64,000 bases of DNA from an uncultured Thermodesulfobacteriota bacterium (GCA_964384945.1 CAYLMK010000004.1:1-64000), one strand, 5' to 3'; positions 1,196-48,223 are shown, counted from the first letter of the stretch. Notes: a model not told the origin generated them from the sequence alone. Numbers and translations: made by a program.

Positions 1196-2995
1196 TCACT
1201 CTGAGACCCTCGAATGGGGATCCGTGAACCTCTCGGCCCAGGGCTCGAGGTACTCTTCGACCTCGGATAGGAGGGGCTCCGGGACCTCTGCGGCCATGGC
1301 CTCGAGCACCCCCTCCACGGTCAGTTCGACCGAGGACATCCGAATGTCCAGGGCCTGGTTCTCATCCACATCGAAGAGGATGCTCTTGGGGCCGCCCGTC
1401 TCGTTCGACCAGGGCTGCCACTCGGGAAGCCCCGAGCCCGGAGGATTCGGATCGCCCGTGCGGGCGAACTGCGCCGCGTAGGCCATCATGGCATCGGACA
1501 GGGCCTCCCGGCCCGGGCGGTTCTGCTCGGTAAAGAGCAGGGCCTGCAGCGCGCCGAAGAAGACGTCGTTGCCGAAGAAGAAAGGAATCTCCAGGCCGTG
1601 GAAGGCGCCCAGCCGGAATCCCCAGGGGTCGGGAAGCTCACTCTCGCCGTTCTCGTCCAGGCTGCCCCAGAGGAATTGATACGTGTAGACGGACGGCTGC
1701 GCCGCATGGGATCGCAGCAGCCGGGCCGGCTGGTCCACGCCCGTGGCCTTCCAGACGTCGCTTCCGTAAGAGGTGACGACCGCATAGAGATCGTCCCTCC
1801 CGGCCAGGGCCGGGTCCGCGAACATGAAGAGCTTGAGTTCGTCCTTATTGCTGCCCAGGATAGTGGGCACCTTGTTCGGATAGGTGCCGGACTCGAGCGT
1901 CTCGCAGCCCGTGTCGGGCAGGACCGTGCCGTCTTCGAACACGTTCGGCAGCGTGATCATGCCGCCGAACCAAGGCTCGTACGCCAGAAGGATCTCGCGC
2001 GGGCTCTTGGCCCTCAGGTAGGCCTCTATCTCGGCGGCGCTCATGCCTGCAAGGCGCCCCTCGGCCGCCTCCGTATCGGCCGCGGTCCCGTCGTTGACGA
2101 GAAGTTTGAGGATCGCGTTCCGGGCGCTCTCTTCCCCCTCTTCCACGGTGCTCGAAAGCGGCCCGCCGCTCTCCGCCATGGCCCTGTGGAAGAGGCCCTC
2201 GGCCAGCGGAGAGACGAGAAGGGAGAAAACGTTCATGGCCCCGGCCGACTCGCCCGCGATCATCACCCGTCCCGGGTCGCCGCCGAAGGCCTCGATGTTG
2301 TCACGCACCCACTCGAGGGCCTTGACGAGATCCAGGGTTCCGTAGTTGCCCGAATCGTCCCCTTCGCTGCCCGGCACCCCCTGCCGGAGGGCGGGATGTG
2401 TGAACCACCCAAACGGCCCGAGCCGGTAGTTCACCGTCACGACCACCAGGTTGGACCGGCTGGCGAGGTTTGCGCCGTTGTAGTCCTCGGTGCATGCGGT
2501 CCCCATGCTGTTGCCGCCGCCGTGTATCCAGAAGTACACGGGCAGGCCGGCCTCCGGCGTGCGGGGGCGCCAGATGTTCAGGTACAGGCAATCCTCGCTT
2601 CCGTACGTTCGGTTTCCGATCAGGAAATACTGGGCGCAGGGCTCGCAGAAGCTGCTCGTCTTCCGGACCCCGTCCCATGGCTCCGGGTCCCGGGGCGCCT
2701 TCCATCGAAGCGGTCCGACCGGCGGCCTGGCAAACGGGATCGCCTTCCAGACCCAGGTGTCCGCGTTTCCCTCCACGGCCTCCACGGCCCCTGACCGGGT
2801 CCGGGTCCTGGGATCCCCAGTCCAGGCCGGGGAATTCGAGGCCGTGGCCCCCTCGTCGTCACCGCACCCGTGCGCAAATAGGCCGGCGAGAAGGGCAAAC
2901 GAGAGAATGGAAATGGAGAGGCCGCAAATTCCCTTTCTGCCGTCCTCGCGGGGCCGGGAACGGTCCGAGCCATGACTCGAGATGCCGAACAGCAT
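1196..2995 (-). CDS. Type-B carboxylesterase/lipase, probable lipoprotein
   Basis: The GESAGA nucleophile elbow, the HGGG oxyanion-hole motif (YFWIHGGGNSMG) and ~600 aa match the carboxylesterase type B family. The likely start is MLFGISSHG... with a lipobox-like LFAHGC. The upstream 76 aa of the ORF is probably spurious. Confidence 0.8.
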   Translation of the reverse strand: MLFGISSHGSDRSRPREDGRKGICGLSISILSFALLAGLFAHGCGDDEGATASNSPAWTGDPRTRTRSGAVEAVEGNADTWVWKAIPFARPPVGPLRWKAPRDPEPWDGVRKTSSFCEPCAQYFLIGNRTYGSEDCLYLNIWRPRTPEAGLPVYFWIHGGGNSMGTACTEDYNGANLASRSNLVVVTVNYRLGPFGWFTHPALRQGVPGSEGDDSGNYGTLDLVKALEWVRDNIEAFGGDPGRVMIAGESAGAMNVFSLLVSPLAEGLFHRAMAESGGPLSSTVEEGEESARNAILKLLVNDGTAADTEAAEGRLAGMSAAEIEAYLRAKSPREILLAYEPWFGGMITLPNVFEDGTVLPDTGCETLESGTYPNKVPTILGSNKDELKLFMFADPALAGRDDLYAVVTSYGSDVWKATGVDQPARLLRSHAAQPSVYTYQFLWGSLDENGESELPDPWGFRLGAFHGLEIPFFFGNDVFFGALQALLFTEQNRPGREALSDAMMAYAAQFARTGDPNPPGSGLPEWQPWSNETGGPKSILFDVDENQALDIRMSSVELTVEGVLEAMAAEVPEPLLSEVEEYLEPWAERFTDPHSRVSE

Positions 2996-3075
2996 GCGAA
3001 TCTCCTCCGTAATGGCTGCCGAAAACGATTCGAAGACCCCGCGGCGTCCGTGGACACCGCAGATCCTTTTCGACG

Positions 3076-3834
3076 CTATTTGAAAACCTCCACCCTGTGA
3101 AAGGCCTCGGCCAGCTCGAAGCCCTCCTGTCCGGCAAAGGCCTTGCACAGGGGCCTGAGCCAGCCCTCCAAGTCTGTGGAACCGACCGCACGGGCAATCT
3201 GTTCCATCTGGGTCCCGTGGCACCGAAGTGCGGCAACCTTGAGGTCAAAGGTTGCCGTGATGTCCGAGCGGTAGTTGACGTCATCGGAGCCCCAGAAAAG
3301 GAGCTCCTGCACCTTGTGAGGGGCCAGGCCCTGCTTGAGCAGGTCGGGGTAGGAAAGAGGGTCTCGCGCAAAGGGATAAACCGCGTCCAGGACAACCTGC
3401 CCAGTAATGCGATGATCGCGGTGGGAGATGTAGCGGCGATAGGGATCCGAGGTGGCAACCGTCCGGGGCCGGTAGGCCCGGATCACCCGCACAATCTCTT
3501 TGCGGAAGGCCGGCGTGTCTTCCAGGCTCTGGTCCGGGTGCCGAAGGAAGACGACCTCGCGGACTCCCAGCACCGCGGCCGCCTCCCTCTGCTCGGTCTC
3601 CCGGATTTCCGCAAGGCGCTCGGGCGCCATGTCGGGGTCGGACGTTCCCTTGTCTCCGTTCGTGCAAATGACGTAGACGACCTTCTTTCCCTGCCCTGTC
3701 CATGCCGCCACGGTGCCGCCGGCGCCGAATTCCGCGTCATCCGGATGGGCGGCGATCACCAGTACGTCCGCCAGTATACTCACGTTGCGAAGCCCCGCCT
3801 CTTGTACAGGTTCTATTTCCACACTGTCAGCCAA
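3076..3834 (-). CDS. PIG-L/LmbE family N-acetylglucosaminyl deacetylase
   Basis: The N-terminal AHPDDAEFGAGG motif and a later HxDH motif are typical of MshB/BshB/LmbE-like zinc deacetylases. Confidence 0.8.
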   Translation of the reverse strand: MADSVEIEPVQEAGLRNVSILADVLVIAAHPDDAEFGAGGTVAAWTGQGKKVVYVICTNGDKGTSDPDMAPERLAEIRETEQREAAAVLGVREVVFLRHPDQSLEDTPAFRKEIVRVIRAYRPRTVATSDPYRRYISHRDHRITGQVVLDAVYPFARDPLSYPDLLKQGLAPHKVQELLFWGSDDVNYRSDITATFDLKVAALRCHGTQMEQIARAVGSTDLEGWLRPLCKAFAGQEGFELAEAFHRVEVFK

Positions 3835-4813
3835 CGAACACCCGGCACCTGTAGAGCGGGACCGGGCTGCCCCCCAGCCGCCGCTTGTATGCCTCGGCGC
3901 CTTTCAGAAAATCGAATTTCTTCTTCCCCTCCCGGATCGCCTCCCGGATGCTGAGCACCTTGCTGAGGAAGCCCACGCTGAGGGAACCAAAACGGGGGTC
4001 GTAGCCGTTGTTGTAAAGGTAAACCGTGGAACGGTCCTGAAAACACAGTACCGCAGCGGCGGACTCGCCATCAAGCTCGAGAATCGAAAGCCTGAGCAGG
4101 CCGGCCCGGGCCGTCTCCTCGGCCAGGGACCGGAAGAAGCAAGCCCGCCGGCTCGTCAGGAAGGCGGCTTTGTCCGGCCGGCTGGCTTTGAAGAGCTGCA
4201 GAAAGGTATCCATCGCCGGGCCGGTCTGCGCCGGGTCGCCCGCCGTACGGAACTGGATCCGTCCCGCCTCCTGAAGTCTCTTGAGCTTCCGCCGGATCTC
4301 GTGCCGCTCCGCCCCCTTGAGAAGCCGCAGGTATTCCTCCCAGGTGGCCGGCAGCGCAAGCTCGTAGGAGACATCCTCACGCTTGAGGAGGGCCTCGCAG
4401 CCCATCTTCTTCGCCTCGGGGAGAAGCCCGCCCATCACCGCCGAGTCCGGCCGTACCGGCCCCAGTTCCAGGAGCCGGATCCCCTGCCGCCTCAACTCCT
4501 CGATCAGGGCTTGGAAAAACTCCGGGCCTCTTCCCGGGGCCGTGACGAAATCCAGGTAATCGCACACGTCCGGCGCGCCGACGAACGAGGCCTCCGCCTC
4601 CCGGACCCGCAGGGGCGCAATCCCGATCAGGTCCTGTCCCTTTTCGACCGAAAGGAGCAGGAGCGCACCGGATTCTCCGAAGGCGTTCCACCACGCCCGC
4701 AACCAGGAGGGGTGCACAAAGGGACAATTCCATGCAAGGCGGCTCCCGCCGCCCGTCCATCGTGAAGACAGGCTCTCGAACGTCTCCCGCCTCACCCTGC
4801 AGCCCTCTTCCAT
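3827..4813 (-). CDS. FemAB/CelD-like GNAT acyltransferase (Acetyltransf_6 / BioF2-like family)
   Basis: The C-terminal ...FDFLKGAEAYKRRLG... region is characteristic of the CelD/FemAB-like GNAT family. It overlaps the deacetylase gene by 8 nt, which suggests an operon. Confidence 0.65.
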   Translation of the reverse strand: MEEGCRVRRETFESLSSRWTGGGSRLAWNCPFVHPSWLRAWWNAFGESGALLLLSVEKGQDLIGIAPLRVREAEASFVGAPDVCDYLDFVTAPGRGPEFFQALIEELRRQGIRLLELGPVRPDSAVMGGLLPEAKKMGCEALLKREDVSYELALPATWEEYLRLLKGAERHEIRRKLKRLQEAGRIQFRTAGDPAQTGPAMDTFLQLFKASRPDKAAFLTSRRACFFRSLAEETARAGLLRLSILELDGESAAAVLCFQDRSTVYLYNNGYDPRFGSLSVGFLSKVLSIREAIREGKKKFDFLKGAEAYKRRLGGSPVPLYRCRVFVG

Positions 4814-4832
4814 ATCGGCTCATCTTCGAAAT

Positions 4833-5140
4833 TCAAAGGGAAACGGTTCGTCCCGTGCGGGCCGCCTCTGCCAGCCCGTCCAGCACCCTCATGTTGCGCA
4901 CGCTTTCCTCGGGAGAGATCAGGGGGGCGGTCCGGCCCAGAACGGCATCGGAGAAATGTTCCACCATGAGCCGATACTCGTCCGCACCCGGCACCCGGTG
5001 CTCCTCGCCCGCATCCTGGTCCCTCCTCCGCAAGGTGAAGGTCGTGTCCTTTTCCCACGGCACAAAGGCGTCCTGAGGCAGGTCGACAGCTCCGTCGGAA
5101 CCGATATATCAGGGCCTCCATCAGAAGGGCCAGCGGAGTT
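4833..5140 (-). pseudogene. Remnant of a Gfo/Idh/MocA-family oxidoreductase (C-terminal ~100 aa only)
   Basis: The 76-aa ORF 4833..5063 reads ...EEHRVPGADEYRLMVEHFSDAVLGRTAPLISPEESVRNMRVLDGLAEAARTGRTVSL, which is the conserved C-terminal dimerization region of Gfo/Idh/MocA enzymes. The ~250 aa of N-terminal Rossmann domain that should lie upstream is occupied by the next gene. Confidence 0.5.
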
Positions 5141-5147
5141 TGGACCA

Positions 5148-6419
5148 TCATGCTTCGGCACTCCCCCCGCCTTTCATGTGCCATCGAGGGCCGCAAGAGG
5201 TGTCCTCGACGACCACGCCCCCTCGCAGGAGTGCGTCACGGATCGCGTCCGCCTCCTGCCATTGCCGGGCCTGCCGGAACCTCTCCCGGAGAGCAAGCAA
5301 CTCCTCGACCAGCGGCGCAACGAAACCGGAAGGGTCTGCCGCACGGGGCCAGAGCTTGACGCCGAGCGAGACGATCATTTCTCTGAGGATCTCCCTCGCC
5401 TGCGAGATGAACTCCCCGCTCTCGATATCCTGGTGCGCCTCCCAGATCGTCCGATCCAACTCGAGAAGGGCGTTGATCGCAGCTCCCGGCTCGTTCGACA
5501 CGAGACCCTTCTCAAAGGCGGCCTCGATTCGGTGAACCTCGTCCCAGAAGGGTTCTTCCCTCGTGCCCGTCGAGACCCGATCGGTCTCGGCAACCGGCGC
5601 CTCCCGCCTCCATCCCGTCCAGAGATCCCCTCCACGCAGGGCATCCAGGGGAACAGGCCGTCCCCCTTCGAAGGACTTCTCGCCTCGGCGGCTGCGCAGG
5701 GTCACCCGGCCGATCCCCTTGATGACCGCCTCCTCCCTTTCGAGGTCGACCAGGCAGGCCGTGTGTTCGTCGAGGCCCAGCACGGAGACATCCTCGGGGA
5801 GGAGAGACTCCAATTCCCGGAACCGCGGCTCTCCCATGTAACAGAAACGGGTGTCGTGGGTTCCTCCTTCGGCGTTGTTCCAGTGAGGGATCACCACGAG
5901 ATTCAAACCGAACCGGCCCAGGAGATCCATCCCCTCCAGCCAGTGAACCGCCTCGCCTACCTTGTAGATCTCATAGACCGGCAGGGTGAAACGACCCACG
6001 GTCAGGGCGGCGGCGCTCGCAGCCACCAGACACCCGCCCTGTTCCACCCTGTTCGCCAGAATCTCCGGAATCGGCGTTTCACGCCACTGACGGACCGCAT
6101 AACTGGGGCTGCCGGGCCCGATGAGTACATAGTCGGCCTGGCGGAGGCAGTGGAAGGCCTGCTCCGCCTCGAACGGGGTCGCCTTCTCGTGAGACTTGAA
6201 GGAAGCGACGGAGATGGGATGTCGCACGTGGTTTCGGAAATACTCGGCGGCCCTCTGCGAGAGATGCTCCACATTGAGCTGGAAGCCGGCCGGCGTATCC
6301 AGGAAGACGGCTCGGGGGGCGTCTCCGATGCCGGCAAGCAAGTCCTTGTGGACCTCGACCATGGTGGCGGTCAGCTCACCCGAGCCCATCAGGGCGATGA
6401 CGCCCTTCTTCGTTGACAT
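5148..6419 (-). CDS. Fusion protein: N-terminal peptidase S51 (dipeptidase E/cyanophycinase-like) domain + C-terminal cysteinyl-tRNA synthetase-like helical domain
   Basis: The start at MSTKKGVIALMGSGE (ATG 6417-6419) fits PepE-like architecture, with ...ADYVLIGPGSPS... and ...LVAASAAALT... at the nucleophile position. The C-terminal ~100 aa (...ADAIRDALLRGGVVVEDTSCGPRW) closely resembles the extreme C-terminus of bacterial CysRS. No HIGH or KMSKS motif is present, so it is not a synthetase. Confidence 0.55.
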   Translation of the reverse strand: MSTKKGVIALMGSGELTATMVEVHKDLLAGIGDAPRAVFLDTPAGFQLNVEHLSQRAAEYFRNHVRHPISVASFKSHEKATPFEAEQAFHCLRQADYVLIGPGSPSYAVRQWRETPIPEILANRVEQGGCLVAASAAALTVGRFTLPVYEIYKVGEAVHWLEGMDLLGRFGLNLVVIPHWNNAEGGTHDTRFCYMGEPRFRELESLLPEDVSVLGLDEHTACLVDLEREEAVIKGIGRVTLRSRRGEKSFEGGRPVPLDALRGGDLWTGWRREAPVAETDRVSTGTREEPFWDEVHRIEAAFEKGLVSNEPGAAINALLELDRTIWEAHQDIESGEFISQAREILREMIVSLGVKLWPRAADPSGFVAPLVEELLALRERFRQARQWQEADAIRDALLRGGVVVEDTSCGPRWHMKGGGSAEA

Positions 6420-6525
6420 GGGCCTCCCCGACGTCCCGACCGGGCCGGCCGCGGCCCCACAAAGGGCGTGAGCGGGGTGCCCGGCCCTTCTGAGGAGGCT
6501 ACCACAGCCCATTTCGCCTTGCCAA

Positions 6526-6583
6526 CTGCCGTGGCTGAGCCGCCGGCGAAGCGGCGAGCTTGCTCGCCGTGACGGCCGTCGGA
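6526..6583. repeat. Copy A of a ~58-nt conserved intergenic element (copy B at 11803..11860)
   Basis: CTGCCGTGGCTGAGCCGCCGGCGAAGCGGCGAGCTTGCTCGCCGTGACGGCCGTCGGA differs from the copy at 11803-11860 at 6 of 58 positions. It contains the internal hairpins cgccg/cggcg and gacgg/ccgtc. Confidence 0.55.
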
Positions 6584-6672
6584 CGCTCTCGCAGGCAATA
6601 CGCTCCGATTCCTGCCCCCTGTCGGGGCTCAGGGCGATCATGACGGCGGGCGGAGAACCGAGCCGGGCTCCC

Positions 6673-8007
6673 CTACTTCTTTTTGAAGGCCGTCTTGGGG
6701 AAAAAGCAGACCGGGCACTCCTCGGGCGGCTCTTCCCCGTAGTGAACGTAACCGCACATCCGGCACCGCCAGACGGACCTTCCCTTTTCCTTTCCGGATT
6801 CCAGCTCTTCGGGGTCCATCTCCCGTTGGATCGGAAGATCCTCCAGCGGGGGCATCACCGGTTCGTAGGCGCCCAGGGCAAAGCCTGAGATGATGATTCG
6901 CTGAATCTCGCTGGTCCCCTCGTAGATCTTGAAGAGGCGGCTGTCGCGCAGGAGCTTTTCGACCGGAAACATCTTCGTGTACCCGTAGCCCGCGAAGATT
7001 TGCAGGGCCTCGCTCAAGATCGACTCGGCCGCCTCGGTGGAGTACATCTTGGCCATGGACGCGGTCAGGGTCGGGTCCATGCCCCGGTCCGCCTCCCACG
7101 CCGCCTTCCAGACCAGCAGGCGGGCCGTCTCCACCTTCTGGTACATCTCGGCCAGCTTGAACTGAATGGCCTGGAAGTTGGCGATGGGCTGCCCGAAGGC
7201 ACGTCTCTTCTTCGCGTAATCGATGGCGAACTCCATGGCCGACCGGGATGCGCCGACCGCAAAGGCGCCGATGGCCGGACGGGTACGGCCGAAGGTCTTC
7301 ATGGCAAGCACGAAGCCCTCTCCGGGCGGCGCGAGCACGTTCTCCTTGGGCACCTTCACGTTCTTGAAGTTCAGAGACCCCGTGTTGGATGCCCGTTGGC
7401 CGAGCTTCTGGATGGTCGCGCCCGTCGAGACGCCCTCCCAGCCCCGCTCCACCAGAAAAGCGCAGATTCCCTTGTGCTTGGATTCCGGGTCCACGGTGGC
7501 GAAAACGGACATGTAGTCGGAGATGCCCGCGTTCGTGATCCAGAACTTGGTGCCGTCGAGCACCCAGTGGTCGCCCTCCTCCCTGGCCCGGCACCGGATA
7601 CCGGAGACGTCCGAGCCCATGGTGGGCTCGGAGGTGGCAAAGCAGATGAGCTTGAATTCCTTTGCGATTTTGGGGAGGTACTTTTCCTTCAGGGGCTCGT
7701 TCGAACAGAGAATGAGCGGCTCCATTCCCAGGGAGTTGTCGAAGATCGAGGTCGCCAGCCCCGGACAGGCCGCGGCAAGCTCCTCGGTAACGATGACGCC
7801 GTCGAGCAGCCCGTAGCCCGCCCCCCCGTACCGCACCGGGATGTCCCCGTTCATGATGCCCGCGTCGAAGGCCTTCCGGAGCACGTGCATCGGGGTTTCG
7901 TGCTTTTCGTCGTAGTGCCAGGCGACCGGGAGGATCTCTTTCCGTGCGAATTCGCGGGCCTTTTCCTGCAGCTTCCGTTGCTCGGGAGTGAGGGTGAAAT
8001 CGAGCAT
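6673..8007 (-). CDS. Acyl-CoA dehydrogenase with C-terminal rubredoxin-like domain
   Basis: Full ACAD fold signatures are present (N-terminal MLDFTLTPEQ..., FAD/CoA motifs, catalytic E in YEGTSEIQRIII). Terminal CRMCGY...CPVC is a rubredoxin-type 4-Cys knuckle. The start is taken at the MLDF Met. Confidence 0.85.
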   Translation of the reverse strand: MLDFTLTPEQRKLQEKAREFARKEILPVAWHYDEKHETPMHVLRKAFDAGIMNGDIPVRYGGAGYGLLDGVIVTEELAAACPGLATSIFDNSLGMEPLILCSNEPLKEKYLPKIAKEFKLICFATSEPTMGSDVSGIRCRAREEGDHWVLDGTKFWITNAGISDYMSVFATVDPESKHKGICAFLVERGWEGVSTGATIQKLGQRASNTGSLNFKNVKVPKENVLAPPGEGFVLAMKTFGRTRPAIGAFAVGASRSAMEFAIDYAKKRRAFGQPIANFQAIQFKLAEMYQKVETARLLVWKAAWEADRGMDPTLTASMAKMYSTEAAESILSEALQIFAGYGYTKMFPVEKLLRDSRLFKIYEGTSEIQRIIISGFALGAYEPVMPPLEDLPIQREMDPEELESGKEKGRSVWRCRMCGYVHYGEEPPEECPVCFFPKTAFKKK

Positions 8008-8066
8008 GGGGGACTCCCTGCTTCTCGGGTTGCCTTCGTCCTTCTCCTCCGATGCCGCCATGCGAA

Positions 8067-8127: not shown

Positions 8128-8934
8128 CTACTTCGCCTTCGGGGCCAGGGGCACGTACGCGGCCGGCTCGATGACCCGGAAAGTGAAGCTCTCGGTGACG
8201 AAGAGGGTGACTTCGGTGCTCGTGTGCGACTGGTAGCCCACCGCGAAGTCCTGGCCGATGATCAATTCCAGATCCTGGCCCCGCGTCGACACGAGGAACC
8301 CGCCCTTGGAGGAATGGCTGTAGACGATGGGTCCGCCCAGAAGACCCTGGACATGCTGCTGCAGGGGGAATCCCTCGGCGTAGCTTGCCACCAGCTGCCA
8401 GAGGTCCGGGTTTACGACCAGTGCGTAAGGGCCGCCGATGGAGGCCGCGATCAGGATGCCGACGCCCTGGGAGACGGCCTCGAGGAACCCCGCAGGGGTC
8501 TTTGCGAAGGCGATCGGCTTGTGGCGGCAGGCCTGCTGCATACCGACGATGCAGGCCGGCTCGAATCCGTTGAGGATCGCGTTCTCTTCGAACAAGGCGA
8601 TCTTTCGGGAGGCATCTTCGAGGGACTTGAGTTCGATATCTTTGGCGCCGCGGATGATATTGTCGAGCTCCCAGACATCCAGAACGAAGGAGGCGCGGCA
8701 CTCGACCAGGGGCTGCACCGCGTGGATACCGTACTGGACATCTTCCTTTTTCTGTCCTTTCGGCACCTCGAGGCGTCCGAGCGGAACGGCCGCGTAGTCC
8801 CAGCCCTGGGGCCCCACCACATCGACGAATTTGCGAGCGGACAGATAGGCCGTGAGCACCAGCCTAGCCTGTCGGTCGATCTCCTGCCAGGCTTCGAGCG
8901 TGATCGGTGCGAGGGTTCGCTTCAGAATGTCCAT
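8128..8934 (-). CDS. enc: Family 1 encapsulin nanocompartment shell protein (Linocin_M18-like, HK97 fold), 268 aa
   Basis: MDILKRTLAPITLEAWQEIDRQAR...FVDVVGPQGWDYAAVPLG...FVLDVWELDN...GPYALVVNPDLWQ...LIIGQDFAVGYQSHTSTEVTLFVTESFTFRVIEPAAYVPL is collinear with Thermotoga/Myxococcus encapsulins (MEFLKRSFAPLT...FTFQVVNPEA). The 614-aa ORF in the track is an upstream read-through, and the true ATG is at 8932-8934. Confidence 0.85.
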   Translation of the reverse strand: MDILKRTLAPITLEAWQEIDRQARLVLTAYLSARKFVDVVGPQGWDYAAVPLGRLEVPKGQKKEDVQYGIHAVQPLVECRASFVLDVWELDNIIRGAKDIELKSLEDASRKIALFEENAILNGFEPACIVGMQQACRHKPIAFAKTPAGFLEAVSQGVGILIAASIGGPYALVVNPDLWQLVASYAEGFPLQQHVQGLLGGPIVYSHSSKGGFLVSTRGQDLELIIGQDFAVGYQSHTSTEVTLFVTESFTFRVIEPAAYVPLAPKAK

Positions 8935-43723: not shown

Positions 43724-46700
43724 TCAGCCATTTTTCTGTTCTCCTTTTTCCGAACGGTCTTCCGCCGCCGTTCCGGTCCCGGGTCCCGAGGCCAGAGAAA
43801 CGAGCGCCCCGCTTTTCTCCAGGATCTGGCGGTCCGTGTAATGCTGGAGCTGAATCGCCTTCTGGGGGCACTCGGCCACGCAGTTTCCGCACCCCTGGCA
43901 GCGGGACGGATCGATGTACGAATAGCCGTCCTCGTGAATGTACGGCACGTTGTAGGGGCACGCGCGCACGCAGATCAGACACACGGCACACTTGTCCGGC
44001 TCCACCTTGGCCACCACGCCGCCCACCTGCATCCGGTCCTTGCTGATCACGGTGCAGGCCCGGGAGACGGCGGCCGCGGCCTGGGAGATGGATTCGTGGA
44101 TCGGCTTGGGTCCGTGCCCCAGCCCGGCCATGAACACCCCGTCGCTCGCGAAGTCGACCGGACGGAGCTTCATGTGGGCCTCCAGGTAGAATTTGTCCAG
44201 GGTGCGGGACACCTTGAACAGGTTCGCCACCCGGTCGTTGTCCCTCGGGATGATGGCCGCGCTCAAGACGAGCAGGTCGGGCCTGAGCTTCACCTTCCTC
44301 TGAATCGTGGGGTCCCATGCCGTCACGACGAGAGCGCCGTTTTCCTCAACCACCTCGGGCTTGTGGTCCAGGTCGTACCGCGTGAACAAGACGCCCTGCT
44401 GCCGGGCCTTTGTGTAGTATTGCTCGAACATCCCGTACGTGCGCACGTCCCTGTAGAGAATGTTCACGCTCGCGTTCGGGTTGATCTCTTTGATCTTGAG
44501 CGCATTCTTGATCGCGCTCGAGCAACAGATGCGGCTGCAGTAAGGCCTCTCCGGGATCCGGGAGCCCACACACTGGATCATGACGACCTCGTTCAGCCGC
44601 TTCGGATCGATCTGTCCGGAGACGAGCTTCTCCTCGAAGGCCTGCTGGGTCACCACGCGGGGGTTCTCGCCGTGAAGATACTCGTCCGGCTTCCACTCCT
44701 GGCCGCCGGTGGCCAGGATGACGATTCCGTGCTCCAGGCTCCGGTATTGTTTCTCCGGGCCCACCACGATTCCTGTCTTGTAGGTTCCCTTGGAGCCGGA
44801 ATGATCCACCAGCTCCGCTTCGGTGAAAAGCTCGATCGAAGGATGATTCCGGACCCTCTCGACCATGTCCCGGTAGAGGGCCTTCACATCCTTCCCGTCG
44901 ATCGTGTAGTGAAGGTGCCGGAGGTTGCCTCCCAGCTCGGCCTCCTTCTCCACCAGGTAGACCGAGAAACCCTGGTCGGCGAGCTGAATGGCCGCGCTCA
45001 TCCCGCTCAGGCCGCCTCCGACCACAAGGCCCTTCTTGTTGATCTCCTTGTATTCGGTGGGCAGGGGCTGCAGCAGGCGGGCCTTGGCCACGGCCATCCG
45101 GATCAGCTCCTTGGCCTTGGATGTCGCCTCTTCGTGGTGGTGCATGTGGACCCAGGAGCACTGGTCCCGAATGTTGGCCATTTCGAAGAGGAACGGGTTC
45201 AATCCCGCCTCCCGGATGCTCTGGCGGAACAGGGGCTCATGGGTTCTCGGCGAACAGCTCGCCACCACCACCCGGTTCAGGTCGTGGGCCTCCACCGCCT
45301 CCCGGATGTTGACCAGGCTGTCCGAGGAACAGCTGAAGAGGAACTCCTGCGCATGCACCACGCCCGGCAGGGAGGCGGCATAGTCCTTGACGGCGGGCAC
45401 GTCGACGACCGACCCGATGTTCACGCCGCAGTGGCAGACAAACACACCCACGCGCGGCTCCAGGCCCTCCACGTCCTTCTCCGGGGGAAGTTCGGCCTTG
45501 TAGAGCAGGGTTCCCCTGGCCTCGGCGATCTCCGAGGCCGCGAAGGCGGCGGCCCCGCTCGCCTGGGCCACGGTCTCGGGGATGTCCTTGGGGGACTCGA
45601 AGGCGCCGCACACATAGACGCCCGGCCGGGATGTGGCCAGGGGCCGGAACGGGTCGGTCTCGCAGAACCCGTGTTTGTCGAGCTTCACGTTGAGCCGTTC
45701 CGCAAGTGCGCGGGTCTCCCTTCTGGGACCGAGCCCCACGGAGAGCACCACCATGTCGAATTCCTCGTCCTGGATCGCTCCGTTTTCGGCCACGTAGCGC
45801 AAAAGGAGGTTCCTGGTCTTGGGATCCTCGACCACACGCGAAATTTGGGACCGTATGTAGCGGACCCCGTGTTCGTTCTTGGCCCGCTCGTAGTAGCCGT
45901 CGAACCCCTTCCCATGGGCACGGACATCCATGTAGAAGATGGTGGGCTCCACGAAGGAAAGGTGCTCCTTCGTGATGATCGCCTCCTTGGTGGCGTACAT
46001 ACAGCAGACCGACGAGCAGTAGTCATGATCGCAGTCCCGGGACCCGACGCACTGGATCCAGGCGATTTTCTTAGGGATGTCACCGTCCGACGGCCGCATC
46101 GGGATGCTCGAGAAGGGGCCGGTGGCGGAAAGCATCCGCTCGAACTCGATGCTCGTGACCACGTTGTCGTACCGGCCGTAGCCGTACTCGCCCCTCTCGG
46201 ACGGATCGTATTCCTCGAAGCCCAAGGCCAGCAGAACGCTGCCCACTTCGATCTCTTCGATCCGCTCCTTTTCGGCATAGTCGAGAGCTTTCGCCTCACA
46301 GACATCCTCGCAGATTCCGCACCCGAGGCACTTTCTGCAGTTCAGGCAGCGCCCGGCCTCCTCGACCGCCTGCGCGTCCGTGAATCCGGTCTCGACCTCG
46401 TCGAATCCCTTGATCCGCTCGGCCAGGGCCCTCTGGGGCATCCTCTGCCGAAGCTTGAAGAGGAACCCGGTCCGGGCGTCCTCCACCGGGATGCGCTCCT
46501 CCAGCCCGCGGCCCTCGGACATGTCCATGCCGCGCAGGTATCTGTGGATGCTCTCCGCGGCCCGCGCGCCCCCGGCGATCGCGTCGATTGCAATGAAGGG
46601 ACCCTTCTCCGCATCGCCCCCCGCGAACACGCCGGCCACGTTGGTGGCTCCGGTCACCGGATCCACCTTGACCGTCCTCCACCGGGTCATCTTGACACCG

Positions 46701-48223
46701 GTCTTGTCCGGGTCGAAGGGTAGACTCACCCCCTGGCCGATGGCCGGGATGATCACGTCGGCCTTGACCGTAAACTCCGAGCCCTGGATCGGGACCGGCC
46801 GCTGGCGGCCGGATGCATCCGCCTCCCCGAGCTTCATGCGCAGCAGTTCGAGGCCCGTCACCTTGCCGTCGGAGGCCACGACCCGTACCGGAGCGACCAG
46901 GAAGTGCATGCGGACCCCCTCGTCGAGGGCGGCCTGGACCTCCTCGTGATGGGCCGGCATTTCGTTGCGGGTCCGCCGGTAGTACAGGCTCACCTCCCGC
47001 GCGCCGAGCCTGAGCGCGCTCCGGGCCGCATCGATGGCCACGTTGCCGCCGCCGATGACGGCCACGCTGCCCTTCATCGGGACCTGCTTGCCCGCATTGA
47101 TGTCCCGAAGGATCTCGACACCCGGCTTGACGCCTTCCGCCTCTTCCCCGGGAATCTTGAGTTTCATCCCTTCCCAGGCCCCGACCCCGATGAAGGCGGC
47201 CTTGAACCCCATCTCGCCCATGAGCGACTCGAACGGAATATCCGTTCCGATCCTCTTGCCGAGCTCGACCTCCACGCCGTGGTCCAGAACGGCCTGGATT
47301 TCCCGGTCCAGGATGTCCCTGGGCAGGCGGTATTCCGGTATTCCGTAACGGAGCATGCCCCCGAGCTTGGGCTGCGCGTCGAAAATCGTTACCGGATATC
47401 CCTTCCGGGCCAGGTTGTAAGCCGCGGTCAGGCCCGCAGGCCCGCCGCCCACGATTGCGACCTTCTCCGCGAAGGCCTTCTCGGGCCTTTCCGCCGGTAT
47501 CGGCTTGCCCTGCTGGATCTCCCTGTCCGCAACGAACCGCTTGAGCTGGCAGATGGCGATCGGCTCTTCCAGCTTGGTGCCCCGCAGGCACTGCTCCTCG
47601 CAGGGCCGCGTGCAGATCCGGCCGATCGTGGCCGGGAAGGGAAGCTTTTCACGGATCAGGGCCAGCGACGCCTCGAATTCCCCGGAGGCGATGAGCCCCA
47701 CATACTCCCGGACGTCGAGCCGGACCGGGCAGGTGAGCTGGCAGGGCGCGTTCTTGCGGTCGATCACGTGCGTATTGGGCACGGCCTGGGGGTAATCGAT
47801 GAAGATCGCCTTCCGCTTGGTCAGGGACTGGTTGTATTCGCTCGCAATCTCCAGGGGGCAGTACTGCTGGCAGAGCCCGCACCCGGTACACTTGCTCGGA
47901 TCGACCCGCCTTGGATGGCGCAGGATCCTGGCCTTGAAATTCCCCGCCTCTCCGTCGAGCCCGAGGAGTTCGGAGAAGGGGATGATTCGGATGTTCTTCT
48001 CCCGGCCTACCTCGACCAGCTTGGGCGACATGATGCACATGGCGCAGTCGTTGGTCGGAAAGGTCTTGTCGAGCTGGCTCATCGTCCCGCCGATGCCCCC
48101 GGCCTTGTCCACCAGATAGACCTTGAAGCCGGCCTCCACGAGATCCAGGGAGCACTGCATGCCTCCGATGCCGGCCCCCACGACCAGGACGGCGCCTACT
48201 TTCCCGTTGTTCCTTGGAGCCAT
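43724..48223 (-). CDS. hdrL: HdrL-type large HdrA-like flavoprotein (HdrA N-domain + GltD-like NAD(P)H-binding insert + two HdrA modules + ferredoxin domains), 1499 aa
   Basis: N-terminal GAVLVVGAGIGGMQCSLDL FAD motif. An inserted ...VAIVGGGPAGLTAAYNL...VAVIGGGNVAIDAAR... glutamate-synthase-small-subunit-like domain. A second ...GLVVGGGLSGMSAAIQL... HdrA module. Multiple CxxCxxCxxxC ferredoxin motifs (four-Cys thioredoxin-like insert). Confidence 0.8.
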   Translation of the reverse strand: MAPRNNGKVGAVLVVGAGIGGMQCSLDLVEAGFKVYLVDKAGGIGGTMSQLDKTFPTNDCAMCIMSPKLVEVGREKNIRIIPFSELLGLDGEAGNFKARILRHPRRVDPSKCTGCGLCQQYCPLEIASEYNQSLTKRKAIFIDYPQAVPNTHVIDRKNAPCQLTCPVRLDVREYVGLIASGEFEASLALIREKLPFPATIGRICTRPCEEQCLRGTKLEEPIAICQLKRFVADREIQQGKPIPAERPEKAFAEKVAIVGGGPAGLTAAYNLARKGYPVTIFDAQPKLGGMLRYGIPEYRLPRDILDREIQAVLDHGVEVELGKRIGTDIPFESLMGEMGFKAAFIGVGAWEGMKLKIPGEEAEGVKPGVEILRDINAGKQVPMKGSVAVIGGGNVAIDAARSALRLGAREVSLYYRRTRNEMPAHHEEVQAALDEGVRMHFLVAPVRVVASDGKVTGLELLRMKLGEADASGRQRPVPIQGSEFTVKADVIIPAIGQGVSLPFDPDKTGVKMTRWRTVKVDPVTGATNVAGVFAGGDAEKGPFIAIDAIAGGARAAESIHRYLRGMDMSEGRGLEERIPVEDARTGFLFKLRQRMPQRALAERIKGFDEVETGFTDAQAVEEAGRCLNCRKCLGCGICEDVCEAKALDYAEKERIEEIEVGSVLLALGFEEYDPSERGEYGYGRYDNVVTSIEFERMLSATGPFSSIPMRPSDGDIPKKIAWIQCVGSRDCDHDYCSSVCCMYATKEAIITKEHLSFVEPTIFYMDVRAHGKGFDGYYERAKNEHGVRYIRSQISRVVEDPKTRNLLLRYVAENGAIQDEEFDMVVLSVGLGPRRETRALAERLNVKLDKHGFCETDPFRPLATSRPGVYVCGAFESPKDIPETVAQASGAAAFAASEIAEARGTLLYKAELPPEKDVEGLEPRVGVFVCHCGVNIGSVVDVPAVKDYAASLPGVVHAQEFLFSCSSDSLVNIREAVEAHDLNRVVVASCSPRTHEPLFRQSIREAGLNPFLFEMANIRDQCSWVHMHHHEEATSKAKELIRMAVAKARLLQPLPTEYKEINKKGLVVGGGLSGMSAAIQLADQGFSVYLVEKEAELGGNLRHLHYTIDGKDVKALYRDMVERVRNHPSIELFTEAELVDHSGSKGTYKTGIVVGPEKQYRSLEHGIVILATGGQEWKPDEYLHGENPRVVTQQAFEEKLVSGQIDPKRLNEVVMIQCVGSRIPERPYCSRICCSSAIKNALKIKEINPNASVNILYRDVRTYGMFEQYYTKARQQGVLFTRYDLDHKPEVVEENGALVVTAWDPTIQRKVKLRPDLLVLSAAIIPRDNDRVANLFKVSRTLDKFYLEAHMKLRPVDFASDGVFMAGLGHGPKPIHESISQAAAAVSRACTVISKDRMQVGGVVAKVEPDKCAVCLICVRACPYNVPYIHEDGYSYIDPSRCQGCGNCVAECPQKAIQLQHYTDRQILEKSGALVSLASGPGTGTAAEDRSEKGEQKNG

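Follow-up and report, generated by a model that had tools for sequence, protein, structure and literature searches.

Mycothiol synthesis in Actinomycetota (Ino1, MshA, MshA2, MshB, MshC, MshD) and bacillithiol synthesis (BshA, BshB, BshC) are the closest described pathways to the one considered here. In the latter, a GT4 enzyme transfers GlcNAc, a PIG-L-family enzyme deacetylates the product, and cysteine is added, which is the same logic as in the scheme proposed below. The individual proteins of the locus have their own nearest relatives among FemABX-type transferases (FemX, the aaPGS domain of MprF, Orf11/Sba18/Sbb17, PacB, DhpH/DhpK), peptidase family S51 (dipeptidase E, cyanophycinase), and cysteinyl-tRNA synthetase (CysRS) with its paralogue MshC. 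To our knowledge, all characterised S51 enzymes are hydrolases and none is a transferase.

The locus lies at 3076-6419 of the window, i.e., of the whole 64-kb stretch of DNA that was analysed. An earlier note described it as three co-directional genes, coding for a PIG-L/LmbE deacetylase, a FemAB/CelD-like GNAT, and a fusion of an S51 peptidase with the C-terminus of CysRS. The cluster is real, and the minus strand carries all of its features (Table 1). The linkage of the three genes is conserved in other genomes, but the grouping had to be revised. The three genes of the window are a remnant, a trimmed copy of a larger undescribed operon that is common in anaerobic sediment bacteria and whose invariant core elsewhere is GNAT-GT4-PIG-L. 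A literature search did not find a description of the operon or of the fusion.

Table 1. Features of the locus and the evidence on which each was assigned.
Feature	Coordinates	Strand	Evidence
PIG-L/LmbE-family deacetylase	3076-3834	(-)	ORF; PF02585
CelD/BcsL-FemAB-like double-GNAT ('GNAT6'), 328 aa	3827-4813	(-)	PF13480
Gfo/Idh/MocA pseudogene remnant, 90 aa	4836-5105	(-)	tblastn
S51::CysRS-C fusion, 423 aa from MSTKK + stop	5148-6419	(-)	PF03575 + PF23493
S51 (PepE/cyanophycinase-like) serine-hydrolase domain of the fusion, residues 1-262	5634-6419	(-)	Foldseek, PepE alignment
Variable, predicted-disordered linker of the fusion, residues 263-287	5559-5633	(-)	pLDDT, alignment
CysRS-derived C-terminal module of the fusion, residues 288-423	5151-5558	(-)	PF23493, TIGR00435, phmmer, Foldseek
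Alpha/beta anticodon-binding domain, residues 370-416, after four long helices	5172-5312	(-)	with R382, W387, D391, R394

The fusion architecture was upheld by Pfam profiles, the predicted structure, and Foldseek, which agree with one another; only the length had to be corrected from 424 to 423 aa, since the former figure includes the stop codon. For the fusion family, clustering at 90% identity gives at least 8000 clusters and clustering at 50% identity gives 476 representatives (E<1e-30), and the architecture of ~420 aa is common to nearly all of them. The domain matches of the locus are far beyond chance. The N-terminal half barely passes the cut-off of PF03575 (Peptidase_S51; 24.9 bits vs. 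23.9) and is 13-19% identical to solved members of the family. Its predicted structure matched S51 peptidase 6nqc with an E-value of 4e-14 and a TM of 0.83, and PepE and cyanophycinase were also matched with a Foldseek probability of 1.0. S135, H179, and E218 of the fusion align within the PepE motifs GWSAG, NPHF, and LPEG, in which we take the PepE triad to be S120/H157/E192. Conservation of these residues among 114 deep representatives of the family is 113, 114, and 110, respectively. Ser135 (codon 6015-6017), His179, and Glu218 form the predicted catalytic triad. The linker that follows is unconserved in alignment A1, and pLDDT drops below 50 at residues 268-285. Like cphB beside cphA, the fusion adjoins the genes that would build the compound; unlike any characterised S51 enzyme, it carries a CysRS-derived tail of 135 residues.

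The tail scored 29.9 bits on PF23493 (CysS_C), against a cut-off of 23. Positions 362-464 of the 466 in the TIGR00435 cysS profile correspond to fusion residues 313-414, phmmer aligned the tail to residues 415-461 of E. coli CysRS, and a Foldseek search with the predicted structure retrieved the E. coli CysRS-tRNACys complex (1u0b_B, E 2.6e-4). Over its last ~100 residues, the fusion corresponds to the helical-bundle end and the C-terminal anticodon-binding domain of CysRS. In the E. coli enzyme, the anticodon is contacted by R427, W432, D436, and R439, based on PDB 1U0B (PMC13449415). These residues align with R382, W387, D391, and R394 of the fusion, which are conserved in 109, 111 (as W/F/Y), 111, and 112 of the 114 deep representatives. 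Because the anticodon contacts are kept, the similarity is, on the evidence of the alignment, genuine and not that of a generic helical bundle, a possibility that had been raised earlier. The sequence of the fusion contains no HIGH/KMSKS motifs, the Pfam search gave no class-I synthetase match in it, including tRNA-synt_1e, and no MshC chain was among the PDB sequence matches to the tail. Compared with CysRS and MshC, the fusion lacks the Rossmann catalytic domain, HIGH/KMSKS, the CP domain, and the stem-contact fold. It cannot activate cysteine. An assignment of the fusion as a CysRS was rejected, as the TIGR00435 match is limited to the region given above and there is no catalytic core.

The FemAB/CelD-like call for the GNAT is sound (PF13480, Acetyltransf_6, E 3e-33). 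By sequence, the protein belongs to Acetyltransf_6 (CelD/BcsL) and not to FemAB, for it scored 24 bits on PF04339 (FemAB_like), just below the cut-off of 27, and no sequence-level match to solved structures was found. The AF2 model (pLDDT 93.4), however, comes closest to the FemABX-type fold. Its first 13 Foldseek matches in the PDB are Sbb17/Sba18, MprF, aaPGS, and FemX (E 1e-12 to 5e-11, TMq 0.55-0.67), whereas CoA-dependent tandem GNATs are lower (TM 0.35-0.48). The PDB entries of Sbb17/Sba18 describe aminoacyl-tRNA-dependent peptide synthases with streptothrisamine bound. The model thus has the double-GNAT fold of the aminoacyl-tRNA-dependent type and strengthens the earlier hint that the protein may use aminoacyl-tRNA. 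No conserved acetyl-CoA motif was seen in the GNAT. Its K304 is invariant and lies 24 residues from the C-terminus; the catalytic lysine of FemX is K305, and the two proteins do not align at the sequence level. FemA is also among the leading Foldseek matches.

In loci of the Desulfobacterota/Nitrospirota type, the fusion is the first gene, in the order fusion-(Gfo x2)-GNAT-GT4-PIG-L. Among fusion loci with at least 54% identity and enough downstream sequence, 27 of 31 have GNAT, GT4, PIG-L, or Gfo partners, so the lack of conserved co-occurrence that would have told against a functional link does not apply. The order and strand of this linkage are kept across Desulfobacterota, Nitrospirota, Nitrospinota, and others, and in many loci the fusion stands directly beside the GNAT, with no Gfo genes between them. 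When the loci were centred on the GNAT, GT4 followed in 35/36 and PIG-L in 30/36. Of the 22 GNAT-centred loci that extend at least 4.5 kb upstream, 11 have no fusion gene; as half of them do without it, the fusion is not required in cis. It also occurs without these neighbours in Dormibacterota, Acidimicrobiia, Chloroflexota, and Syntrophomonadaceae.

An MshA-like GT4 and accessory genes of the mycothiol type lend further weight to the analogy with mycothiol and bacillithiol that was drawn earlier from the deacetylase. The operon GT4 scored 301-331 bits over its full length on the MshA model and at most 119 bits on that of any other family (~108 bits on BshA). The best score lies under the MshA equivalog cut-off (331 vs. 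462.5). The best PDB sequence match of GT4 is C. glutamicum MshA (E 1e-63), with cyanobacterial sucrose-phosphate synthase 6kih nearly as similar pairwise (2e-62). Recurrent neighbours include an Ino1-type inositol-3-phosphate synthase (TIGR03450, 397 bits), a HAD phosphatase, and a mycoredoxin-TrxR fusion. An MshD-like double GNAT was found in 23 of 80 GNAT-centred loci and a glyoxalase-II-like (GloB-like) MBL hydrolase in 22 of 80; in type-B loci, the double GNAT scored 101 bits against the MshD cut-off of 163. The inositol-linked neighbours favour inositol over malate as the aglycone. There are also differences from mycothiol synthesis. All matches of the operon are under equivalog cut-offs, the genes are clustered and belong to Desulfobacterota, Nitrospirota, and other non-actinobacterial phyla, the S51::CysRS-C protein and the Gfo pair are added, and MshC is absent from the operon, with the FemX-like double-GNAT in its slot. 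Neither MshC, nor a CysRS paralogue, nor a further conserved gene family was found in 166 loci of either operon type; nor is there a BshC-like conserved gene in the operon. No synthetase Pfam domain was present in the annotated loci, and no dedicated tRNACys gene or T-box was found nearby. The window copy lacks GT4 and both Gfo genes, and no GT4, inositol-phosphate synthase, MshD-like GNAT, or other accessory gene was found in the 64-kb window. This copy can be functional only if another part of the genome encodes a GT4.

From the observed domain identities, folds, residue conservation, and gene linkage, we infer substrates, tRNA use, cysteine as the amino acid, and a direction for the S51 reaction. 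Our leading reading, to which we give slightly less than an even chance, is that the three genes are the remnant of a widespread operon making an N-aminoacylated glucosaminyl-inositol, a probably protective, mycothiol-like thiol of low molecular weight. An Ino1-type synthase would provide inositol phosphate, the MshA-like GT4 would join GlcNAc to it, and the HAD phosphatase would strip the phosphate. Next, the PIG-L enzyme would take off the N-acetyl group, and the freed amine would be acylated by the FemX-like double-GNAT with cysteine from Cys-tRNACys. The GNAT, proposed from its modelled fold as a putative aminoacyl-tRNA-dependent transferase, would stand in for the ATP-dependent cysteine ligase MshC, with Cys-tRNACys as its donor and GlcN-inositol as its acceptor. 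Where present, the MshD-like GNAT would cap the cysteine. The fusion would be an accessory enzyme docking on tRNACys via the retained anticodon-binding domain, with its Ser-His-Glu triad acting on the acyl bond of the cysteinyl group. Its most likely task would be to capture or hand over the cysteinyl group of Cys-tRNACys and so couple the pathway to the pool of charged tRNACys. The near-invariant anticodon contacts, together with the S51 triad, are a pointer to tRNACys that is independent of the GNAT evidence. No known FemABX-type system has a partner protein bearing a synthetase anticodon-binding domain, unlike the operon described here. The idea of a tRNA-dependent or cysteine-linked pathway, put forward in the earlier note, is supported to this extent; its tRNA dependence and thiol product stay conditional.

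Several observations go against the thiol-pathway reading: the GT4 score below the MshA cut-off, the nearly equal pairwise similarity of GT4 to sucrose-phosphate synthase, the dispensability of the fusion in cis, and the hydrolytic nature of all characterised S51 enzymes. The same holds for the occurrence of the fusion without operon neighbours in some phyla, the lack of a nearby tRNACys gene or T-box, and the lack of accessory genes in the window.

A rather unlikely alternative keeps the same GT4/PIG-L/GNAT pathway and makes the fusion a turnover S51 amidase, freeing cysteine from Cys-GlcN-inositol. Its CysRS-derived domain would sense tRNACys (e.g., uncharged, in cysteine starvation), and the recycling module would also include the Gfo pair and a second, short cyanophycinase-like S51 paralogue that often accompanies the fusion (15 loci). 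The hydrolysis of aminoacyl or aspartyl amide bonds by known S51 enzymes and the position of cyanophycinase cphB beside the synthetase cphA are in line with such a role. So are the half of operons that do without the fusion in cis and the Gfo enzymes, which are ThuA/ThuB-like with weak NCBIfam matches that include glycoside 3-dehydrogenases of catabolic type. However, the fusion opens a biosynthetic operon in which it is tightly packed, and in many loci it adjoins the GNAT with no Gfo genes present. The alternative also requires an anticodon-binding domain to serve a peptidase as its allosteric sensor, for which we know of no precedent.

It is less probable that the product is a non-thiol N-acyl-glucosaminyl-inositol or related glycoconjugate (an osmolyte, envelope, or polysaccharide component), with a GNAT using acyl-CoA and a CysRS-like tail recruited to a purpose other than binding tRNACys. 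GT4 and PIG-L pairs are also known in GPI-type and aminoglycoside pathways, the GT4 is pairwise almost as near to an osmolyte enzyme, sucrose-phosphate synthase, as to MshA, and the GNAT is named in databases 'CelD/BcsL family acetyltransferase involved in cellulose biosynthesis' and is under the FemAB_like cut-off. These points are opposed by the strong purifying selection on the four anticodon-contact residues, by a GNAT fold nearer to aminoacyl-tRNA-dependent enzymes than to CoA-dependent ones and devoid of a CoA motif, and by the mycoredoxin-TrxR, GloB-like, and MshD-like neighbours, whose recurrence points to thiol chemistry. That the fusion is a free-standing housekeeping enzyme of tRNACys (e.g., one that deacylates or edits mis- or pre-charged tRNACys), whose placement beside the GlcN-inositol genes, seen in one group of phyla, has no mechanistic meaning, is improbable: the family does occur in many phyla, its more distant members lack the operon, and trans-editing factors likewise combine a hydrolase domain with a tRNA-binding domain, but the linkage in 27/31 close loci has the same order and strand across several phyla, and we know of no need of CysRS for editing.

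The thiol-pathway reading can be extended, more doubtfully than for the locus itself. In many anaerobes of the Desulfobacterota, Nitrospirota, and neighbouring phyla, the main low-molecular-weight thiol, a mycothiol-type Cys-GlcN-inositol, might be made by a ribosome-independent Cys-tRNACys route in which the FemX-like GNAT replaces MshC. S51::CysRS-C would then be a new class of enzyme that aims a serine acyl-hydrolase/transferase at one specific (aminoacyl-)tRNA via a synthetase anticodon-binding domain. Through the fusion, the thiol pool would then be linked to the charging of tRNACys.

The PIG-L gene, which is the final gene of the conserved operon, was correctly recognised earlier (PF02585, E 9e-35, 120 bits), and the protein shows the AHPDD (AHPDDAE) and HRDH motifs characteristic of metal binding. 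Its proposed role is MshB/BshB-like, i.e., deacetylation of GlcNAc-inositol. The best NCBIfam score was obtained with BshB1 (99 bits vs. a cut-off of 182), followed by BshB2 (86 vs. 195) and MshB (51 vs. 224); the protein is therefore nearer to BshB than to MshB, and its assignment as an equivalog of either was rejected, with every score under the cut-off. The ORF as listed codes for 252 aa. Comparison with the homologues in L001 and L002 suggests that the true start is likely the GTG at 3783, which gives 235 aa.

The sequence between the GNAT and the fusion is, as noticed earlier, a Gfo/Idh/MocA remnant. It is 66% identical (tblastn, E 1e-36) to residues 247-336, the last 90, of the intact operon protein GFO_b of locus L003. 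The ORF at 4833-5063 scored exactly at the cut-off of PF02894, and stop codons are found in frame upstream of the remnant. It is a pseudogene: of the second Gfo/Idh/MocA oxidoreductase in the ancestral operon, it keeps the C-terminal 90 aa. The intact Gfo pair is present in L003, L085, L087, L088, and others.

All relevant genes of the window lie on the minus strand. The earlier note had described a PIG-L/LmbE deacetylase, a CelD/FemAB-like GNAT and a fusion of a peptidase S51 with the C-terminus of cysteinyl-tRNA synthetase (CysRS), and Pfam searches showed this description to be accurate. The fusion passed both Pfam cut-offs (Peptidase_S51, 24.9 against 23.9; CysS_C, 29.9 against 23). Its alignment to the cysS model was confined to the C-terminal positions 362–464 of 466, and the Rossmann core, HIGH and KMSKS were all absent from it, in agreement with the note, which had seen no catalytic motifs. 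In the case of the GNAT, a sub-threshold FemAB_like match was also present. The NCBIfam models closest to the PIG-L protein were BshB1 (99 bits), BshB2, Mca and MshB, each scoring below its equivalog cut-off; comparison with homologues suggests that its true start is a GTG at 3783. The Gfo/Idh/MocA oxidoreductase (Gfo) remnant noticed between the genes was found as well. It shares 66% identity with the C-terminal end of an intact operon Gfo gene, and stop codons precede it.

Coordinates of features in the window, in the fusion protein and in comparison loci from other genomes and metagenomes (L-numbers)
Feature	Location	Strand	Description
Type-B carboxylesterase	window 1196–3223	-	PF00135, 307 bits
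PIG-L/LmbE deacetylase	window 3076–3834	-	Pfam PF02585, E 9e-35
GNAT	window 3827–4813	-	328 aa; Acetyltransf_6 (CelD/BcsL), E 3e-33
Gfo/Idh/MocA remnant	window 4836–5105	-	90 aa, between fusion and GNAT; similarity to operon Gfo
Fusion	window, within ORF 5148–6641, start at 6419	-	423 aa; Peptidase_S51 + CysS_C
Acyl-CoA dehydrogenase::rubredoxin	window 6673–8061	-	C-terminal rubrerythrin-type rubredoxin domain (PF21349)
Family-1 encapsulin shell protein	window 8128–8928	-	Pfam Linocin_M18, 264 bits
Flavoprotein/iron-sulfur protein	window 43724–48223	-	1499 aa; three pyridine-nucleotide-disulfide oxidoreductase modules + 4Fe-4S domains
Fusion, alpha/beta domain	residues 1–262		AlphaFold2 model
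Fusion, disordered linker	residues 263–287		AlphaFold2 model
Fusion, four long helices + one short helix + beta-hairpin	residues 288–415		AlphaFold2 model
Short S51 gene directly 5′ of fusion	L060:7187–7912, L062, L028, L055, L056, L012, L043, L047, L016, L036, L027, L022, L038, L025, L082		Cyanophycinase-like, ~230–245 aa; GSSAGAM/PHH/IDE motifs
Mycoredoxin-like glutaredoxin + thioredoxin-reductase-type flavoenzyme	L028:5854–7125, L036, L012, L023		CATCD motif; just 5′ of operon
GfoA	L085:7123–8796 and homologues		~550 aa; ~195-aa N-terminal extension
Compact five-gene type B clusters	L103, L109, L115, L129, L136, L138, L143, L159		Metagenome loci
Resolvase, AAA_25 protein, integrase, tRNA-Ser	L084:2183–7680		Directly 5′ of Chloroflexota cluster
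Fusion called as three fragments	L086:8502–9761		156, 90 and 70 aa; last carries CysS_C
c-di-GMP-I-GGC riboswitch	L067:4230–4306	-	65 bits; Bacillota MAG

The fusion was modelled with AlphaFold2 from a 40-sequence alignment, which gave a three-part model with a mean pLDDT of 76.5. Foldseek comparison with the PDB placed S51 peptidases at the top (6nqc, E 4e-14, TM 0.83), then PepE and cyanophycinase; after the S51 set came 1u0b, the complex of E. coli CysRS with tRNACys, at E 2.6e-4 and with 26% identity across 128 columns. Profile and structure searches together recovered both of the similarities that had been claimed. In an alignment with PepE, S135, H179 and E218 of the fusion fall in the triad motifs. 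For E. coli CysRS, a 2026 engineering paper that starts from 1U0B (PMC13449415) names R427, W432, D436 and R439 as the residues in contact with the anticodon, and the phmmer alignment pairs them with R382, W387, D391 and R394 of the fusion. Conservation was determined in a set of 114 sequences, consisting of the query and 113 representatives from a 50%-identity library that are 36–66% identical to it. S135 was kept in 113, H179 in all 114 and E218 in 110 of them, and R382 in 109, D391 in 111 and R394 in 112, while position 387 was W, F or Y in 111. This near-invariance indicates strong purifying selection on functional residues of both halves. By fold and triad the fusion is an S51 member; it bears the CysRS anticodon-binding domain, yet it is not a CysRS.

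At 90% identity the fusion family falls into at least 8000 clusters; at 50% identity it has 476 representatives with E<1e-30. Its database names are generic only ('peptidase E', 'cyanophycinase-like', 'type 1 glutamine amidotransferase-like'). Species-representative genomes contain at least 597 confirmed stretches matching the fusion, in Desulfobacterota, Nitrospirota, Nitrospinota, Aminicenantes, Syntrophomonadaceae, Dormibacterota, Acidimicrobiia, Chloroflexota and Methylomirabilota, and metagenomes from sediment and groundwater are rich in the family. Extra domains in 'fusion' ORFs of 620–710 aa from high-GC loci were rejected as arginine-rich N-terminal read-through artefacts.

The AlphaFold2 model of the window GNAT was confident (pLDDT 93.4, pTM 0.89). 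Its best Foldseek matches in the PDB were exclusively aminoacyl-tRNA-dependent double-GNAT enzymes. They were Sbb17 and Sba18 (E about 1e-12, TM to target 0.67–0.73), deposited as aminoacyl-tRNA-dependent peptide synthases complexed with streptothrisamine, together with the MprF aminoacyl-phosphatidylglycerol synthase domain, FemX (TM 0.66) and FemA. The CoA-dependent tandem GNATs ranked lower, at TM 0.35–0.48 (clavulanate tandem GNAT, VipF, glucosamine N-acetyltransferase and MAB_4324). Acetyl-CoA-binding GNATs carry a Q/R-x-x-G-x-G/A motif, and no positionally conserved motif of this kind was found in the family of the window GNAT. Single-sequence and profile comparisons gave no link to solved structures, and only the fold comparison was informative. 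According to a review, the FemX-like enzyme Orf11 converts streptothrisamine into glycylthricin using Gly-tRNAGly. The reaction proposed for the GNAT from its sequence and predicted fold would be of the same type; the GNAT may act as FemX and Orf11 do, but its Pfam family is Acetyltransf_6.

Three long contigs carry the order fusion-GNAT-(GT4)-PIG-L, where GT4 is an MshA-like glycosyltransferase, and in one of them two Gfo/Idh/MocA genes are inserted after the fusion. The partner proteins were searched by tblastn against 83 loci, and those with at least 6.5 kb downstream were tabulated. Where the fusion was at least 54% identical to that of the window, a partner was retained at 27 of 31 loci (GNAT 25, GT4 24, PIG-L 21, Gfo 11), and the co-occurrence on which the earlier note had made its reading depend was observed here. 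The corresponding figures were 4 of 6 loci at 48–54% identity and 3 of 13 below 48%. Conserved fusion neighbours were also sought in Dormibacterota, Acidimicrobiia, Methylomirabilota and Syntrophomonadaceae, with lineage-level synteny as the only result; a Gfo pair, in L077 and L078, is all that the loci of distant phyla share with the Desulfobacterota operon. Two distant-phyla loci have an alpha/beta hydrolase upstream, and those of Syntrophomonadaceae have a small GNAT downstream. A stand-alone S51 gene directly precedes the fusion in 15 loci and is absent from the window. No dedicated tRNACys gene was found near the operon in the window and 60 loci, and a search upstream of it at Rfam gathering thresholds, covering the window and 10 loci, gave neither a T-box nor another riboswitch. 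In window 2900–6900, no promoter or terminator signal exceeded shuffled expectation. The c-di-GMP riboswitch of L067, ~3.7 kb 5′ of the fusion, is probably unrelated.

The neighbourhood was also analyzed from the GNAT, in a sample of 80 metagenome loci. GT4 lay 3′ of the GNAT in 35 of the 36 loci of sufficient length and PIG-L in 30 of 36, but the fusion lay 5′ in only half (11/22) of the loci that had 4.5 kb or more of upstream sequence. Two operon types were distinguished. Type A has the order (short S51)-fusion-(GfoA-GfoB)-GNAT-GT4-PIG-L, and type B the order GNAT-GT4-[MshD-like]-PIG-L-[MBL hydrolase], with the bracketed genes on the opposite strand and with neither the fusion nor any further conserved gene. 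It follows from these counts and types that GNAT, GT4 and PIG-L form the invariant core and that the fusion is accessory. The type B cluster resembles a full mycothiol-like pathway with MshC as its only replaced member. The possibility that the fusion itself replaces MshC was downgraded, because type B operons keep the GNAT without it. In L084, the tRNA adjoining a Chloroflexota GNAT-GT4-MshD-like-PIG-L cluster appears to have been the integration site of a mobile element.

The operon GT4 matched the MshA model (D-inositol-3-phosphate glycosyltransferase) end to end with 301–331 bits, under the equivalog cut-off of 462.5 bits, and the next family reached at most 119 bits. Positions K78, Y110, T134 and R154 of MshA, which we take to be the inositol phosphate-binding residues, are conserved in the GT4 alignment. 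The best PDB sequence match was C. glutamicum MshA (1e-63), with T. elongatus sucrose-phosphate synthase a close second (2e-62); the structure of the latter was itself obtained by molecular replacement with MshA (PMC7264703). Other recurrent neighbours were counted in two locus sets, the second GNAT-centred, and scored with NCBIfam. They were an inositol-3-phosphate synthase (TIGR03450 'mycothiol_INO1', 397 bits, 5 loci), a HAD-IA phosphatase (8 + 9 loci), an MshD-like double GNAT (101 bits, 2 + 23 loci), a GloB-like MBL hydrolase (83 bits, 9 + 22 loci) and a mycoredoxin-like N-terminal domain fused to thioredoxin reductase (69 and 314 bits, 4 + 2 loci), a candidate reductase of the putative thiol system. 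The operon Gfo proteins show weak similarity to inositol 2-dehydrogenase and to glycoside 3-dehydrogenases. The N-terminal extension of GfoA has a faint ThuA-like match, reminiscent of the ThuA/ThuB pair that makes 3-keto-disaccharides. As annotated from sequence, the neighbours jointly cover all mycothiol-pathway functions save the cysteine ligase MshC, and no MshC-like conserved gene was present in the loci examined.

The domain identities, the folds, the conservation of catalytic and anticodon-contact residues and the operon linkage in both directions are directly established. In the proposed pathway, GT4 would form GlcNAc-inositol-phosphate, which the phosphatase and PIG-L would convert into GlcN-inositol. 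The FemX-like GNAT would then take the place of MshC and acylate the amine with cysteine drawn from Cys-tRNACys, after which acetylation by an MshD-like enzyme may follow. The fusion would grip tRNACys at the anticodon, and its serine triad would act on the acyl bond of the cysteinyl group. The fold of the GNAT and the CysRS-derived domain point to tRNA independently of each other; of the two, the CysRS-derived domain alone specifies cysteine. We regard this tRNA-linked mycothiol-like pathway as a serious possibility, falling slightly short of an even chance. The reaction of the fusion is its least certain part and could be cysteinyl capture and hand-over, deacylation or tRNA-gated hydrolysis of a conjugate. 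The homoserine O-acyltransferase MetA shows this fold class to be capable of ping-pong acyl transfer, and the cyanophycinase gene cphB, which adjoins the synthetase gene cphA, is a precedent in gene organisation for tRNA-gated conjugate hydrolysis. Judged from genes and models, the system would work like mycothiol or bacillithiol biosynthesis, but it is not a member of either, as its components all score under equivalog cut-offs and the ligase is missing. By type it would be a pathway to a GlcN-aglycone thiol in which both the ligation strategy and the domain fusion are new.

For the low-molecular-weight thiol of sulfate reducers and related anaerobes, the operon offers a concrete, testable candidate, and it predicts a GlcN-inositol thiol outside Actinomycetota. 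If the model is true, cysteine attachment would draw in a new way on the translation pool instead of a dedicated ATP-dependent ligase, and the few small-molecule enzymes that depend on aminoacyl-tRNA would gain an example from primary metabolism. We know of no earlier peptidase-fold enzyme fused to an aminoacyl-tRNA synthetase anticodon-binding domain, so the fusion would be the first. A non-exhaustive full-text search of the literature found neither the fusion nor the operon described, nor any tRNA-dependent route of the mycothiol type.

The 64 kb of the window contain no MshA-like GT4, no intact Gfo and none of the accessory genes. In L088, a metagenome relative with the same flanks, fusion-GfoA-GfoB-GNAT-GT4-PIG-L lies between the acyl-CoA dehydrogenase::rubredoxin gene upstream and the type-B carboxylesterase downstream, which is likely the ancestral order. 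The Gfo pair is missing and GT4 kept in L001, and L002 is without both, as is the window. In the close relative L086 the fusion is fragmented and the GNAT shortened to 275 aa, by either decay to a pseudogene or frameshifts of long-read assembly. The Gfo deletion in the window is comparatively recent, since the remnant is still 66% identical to the intact gene. The other three genes have stayed intact, with all conserved residues in place, and from the sequence they would need a GT4 encoded outside the window to function. The window cluster is a decayed version and so a pointer to the system, not a complete example.

The unusual acyl-CoA dehydrogenase::rubredoxin gene also flanks the operon in L001, L002 and L086–L088, and the carboxylesterase is conserved 3′ of PIG-L in the same five loci. 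The carboxylesterase ORF as listed is ~79 aa longer than its homologues and overlaps the 3′ end of PIG-L, so its true start is probably near 2986. The encapsulin gene lies 67 nt upstream of the acyl-CoA dehydrogenase::rubredoxin gene and is co-directional with it; no obvious cargo gene was identified for it. Farther away, the 1499-aa protein resembles, by its predicted domains, an HdrA/GltD-like fusion, a type common in anaerobic Desulfobacterota.
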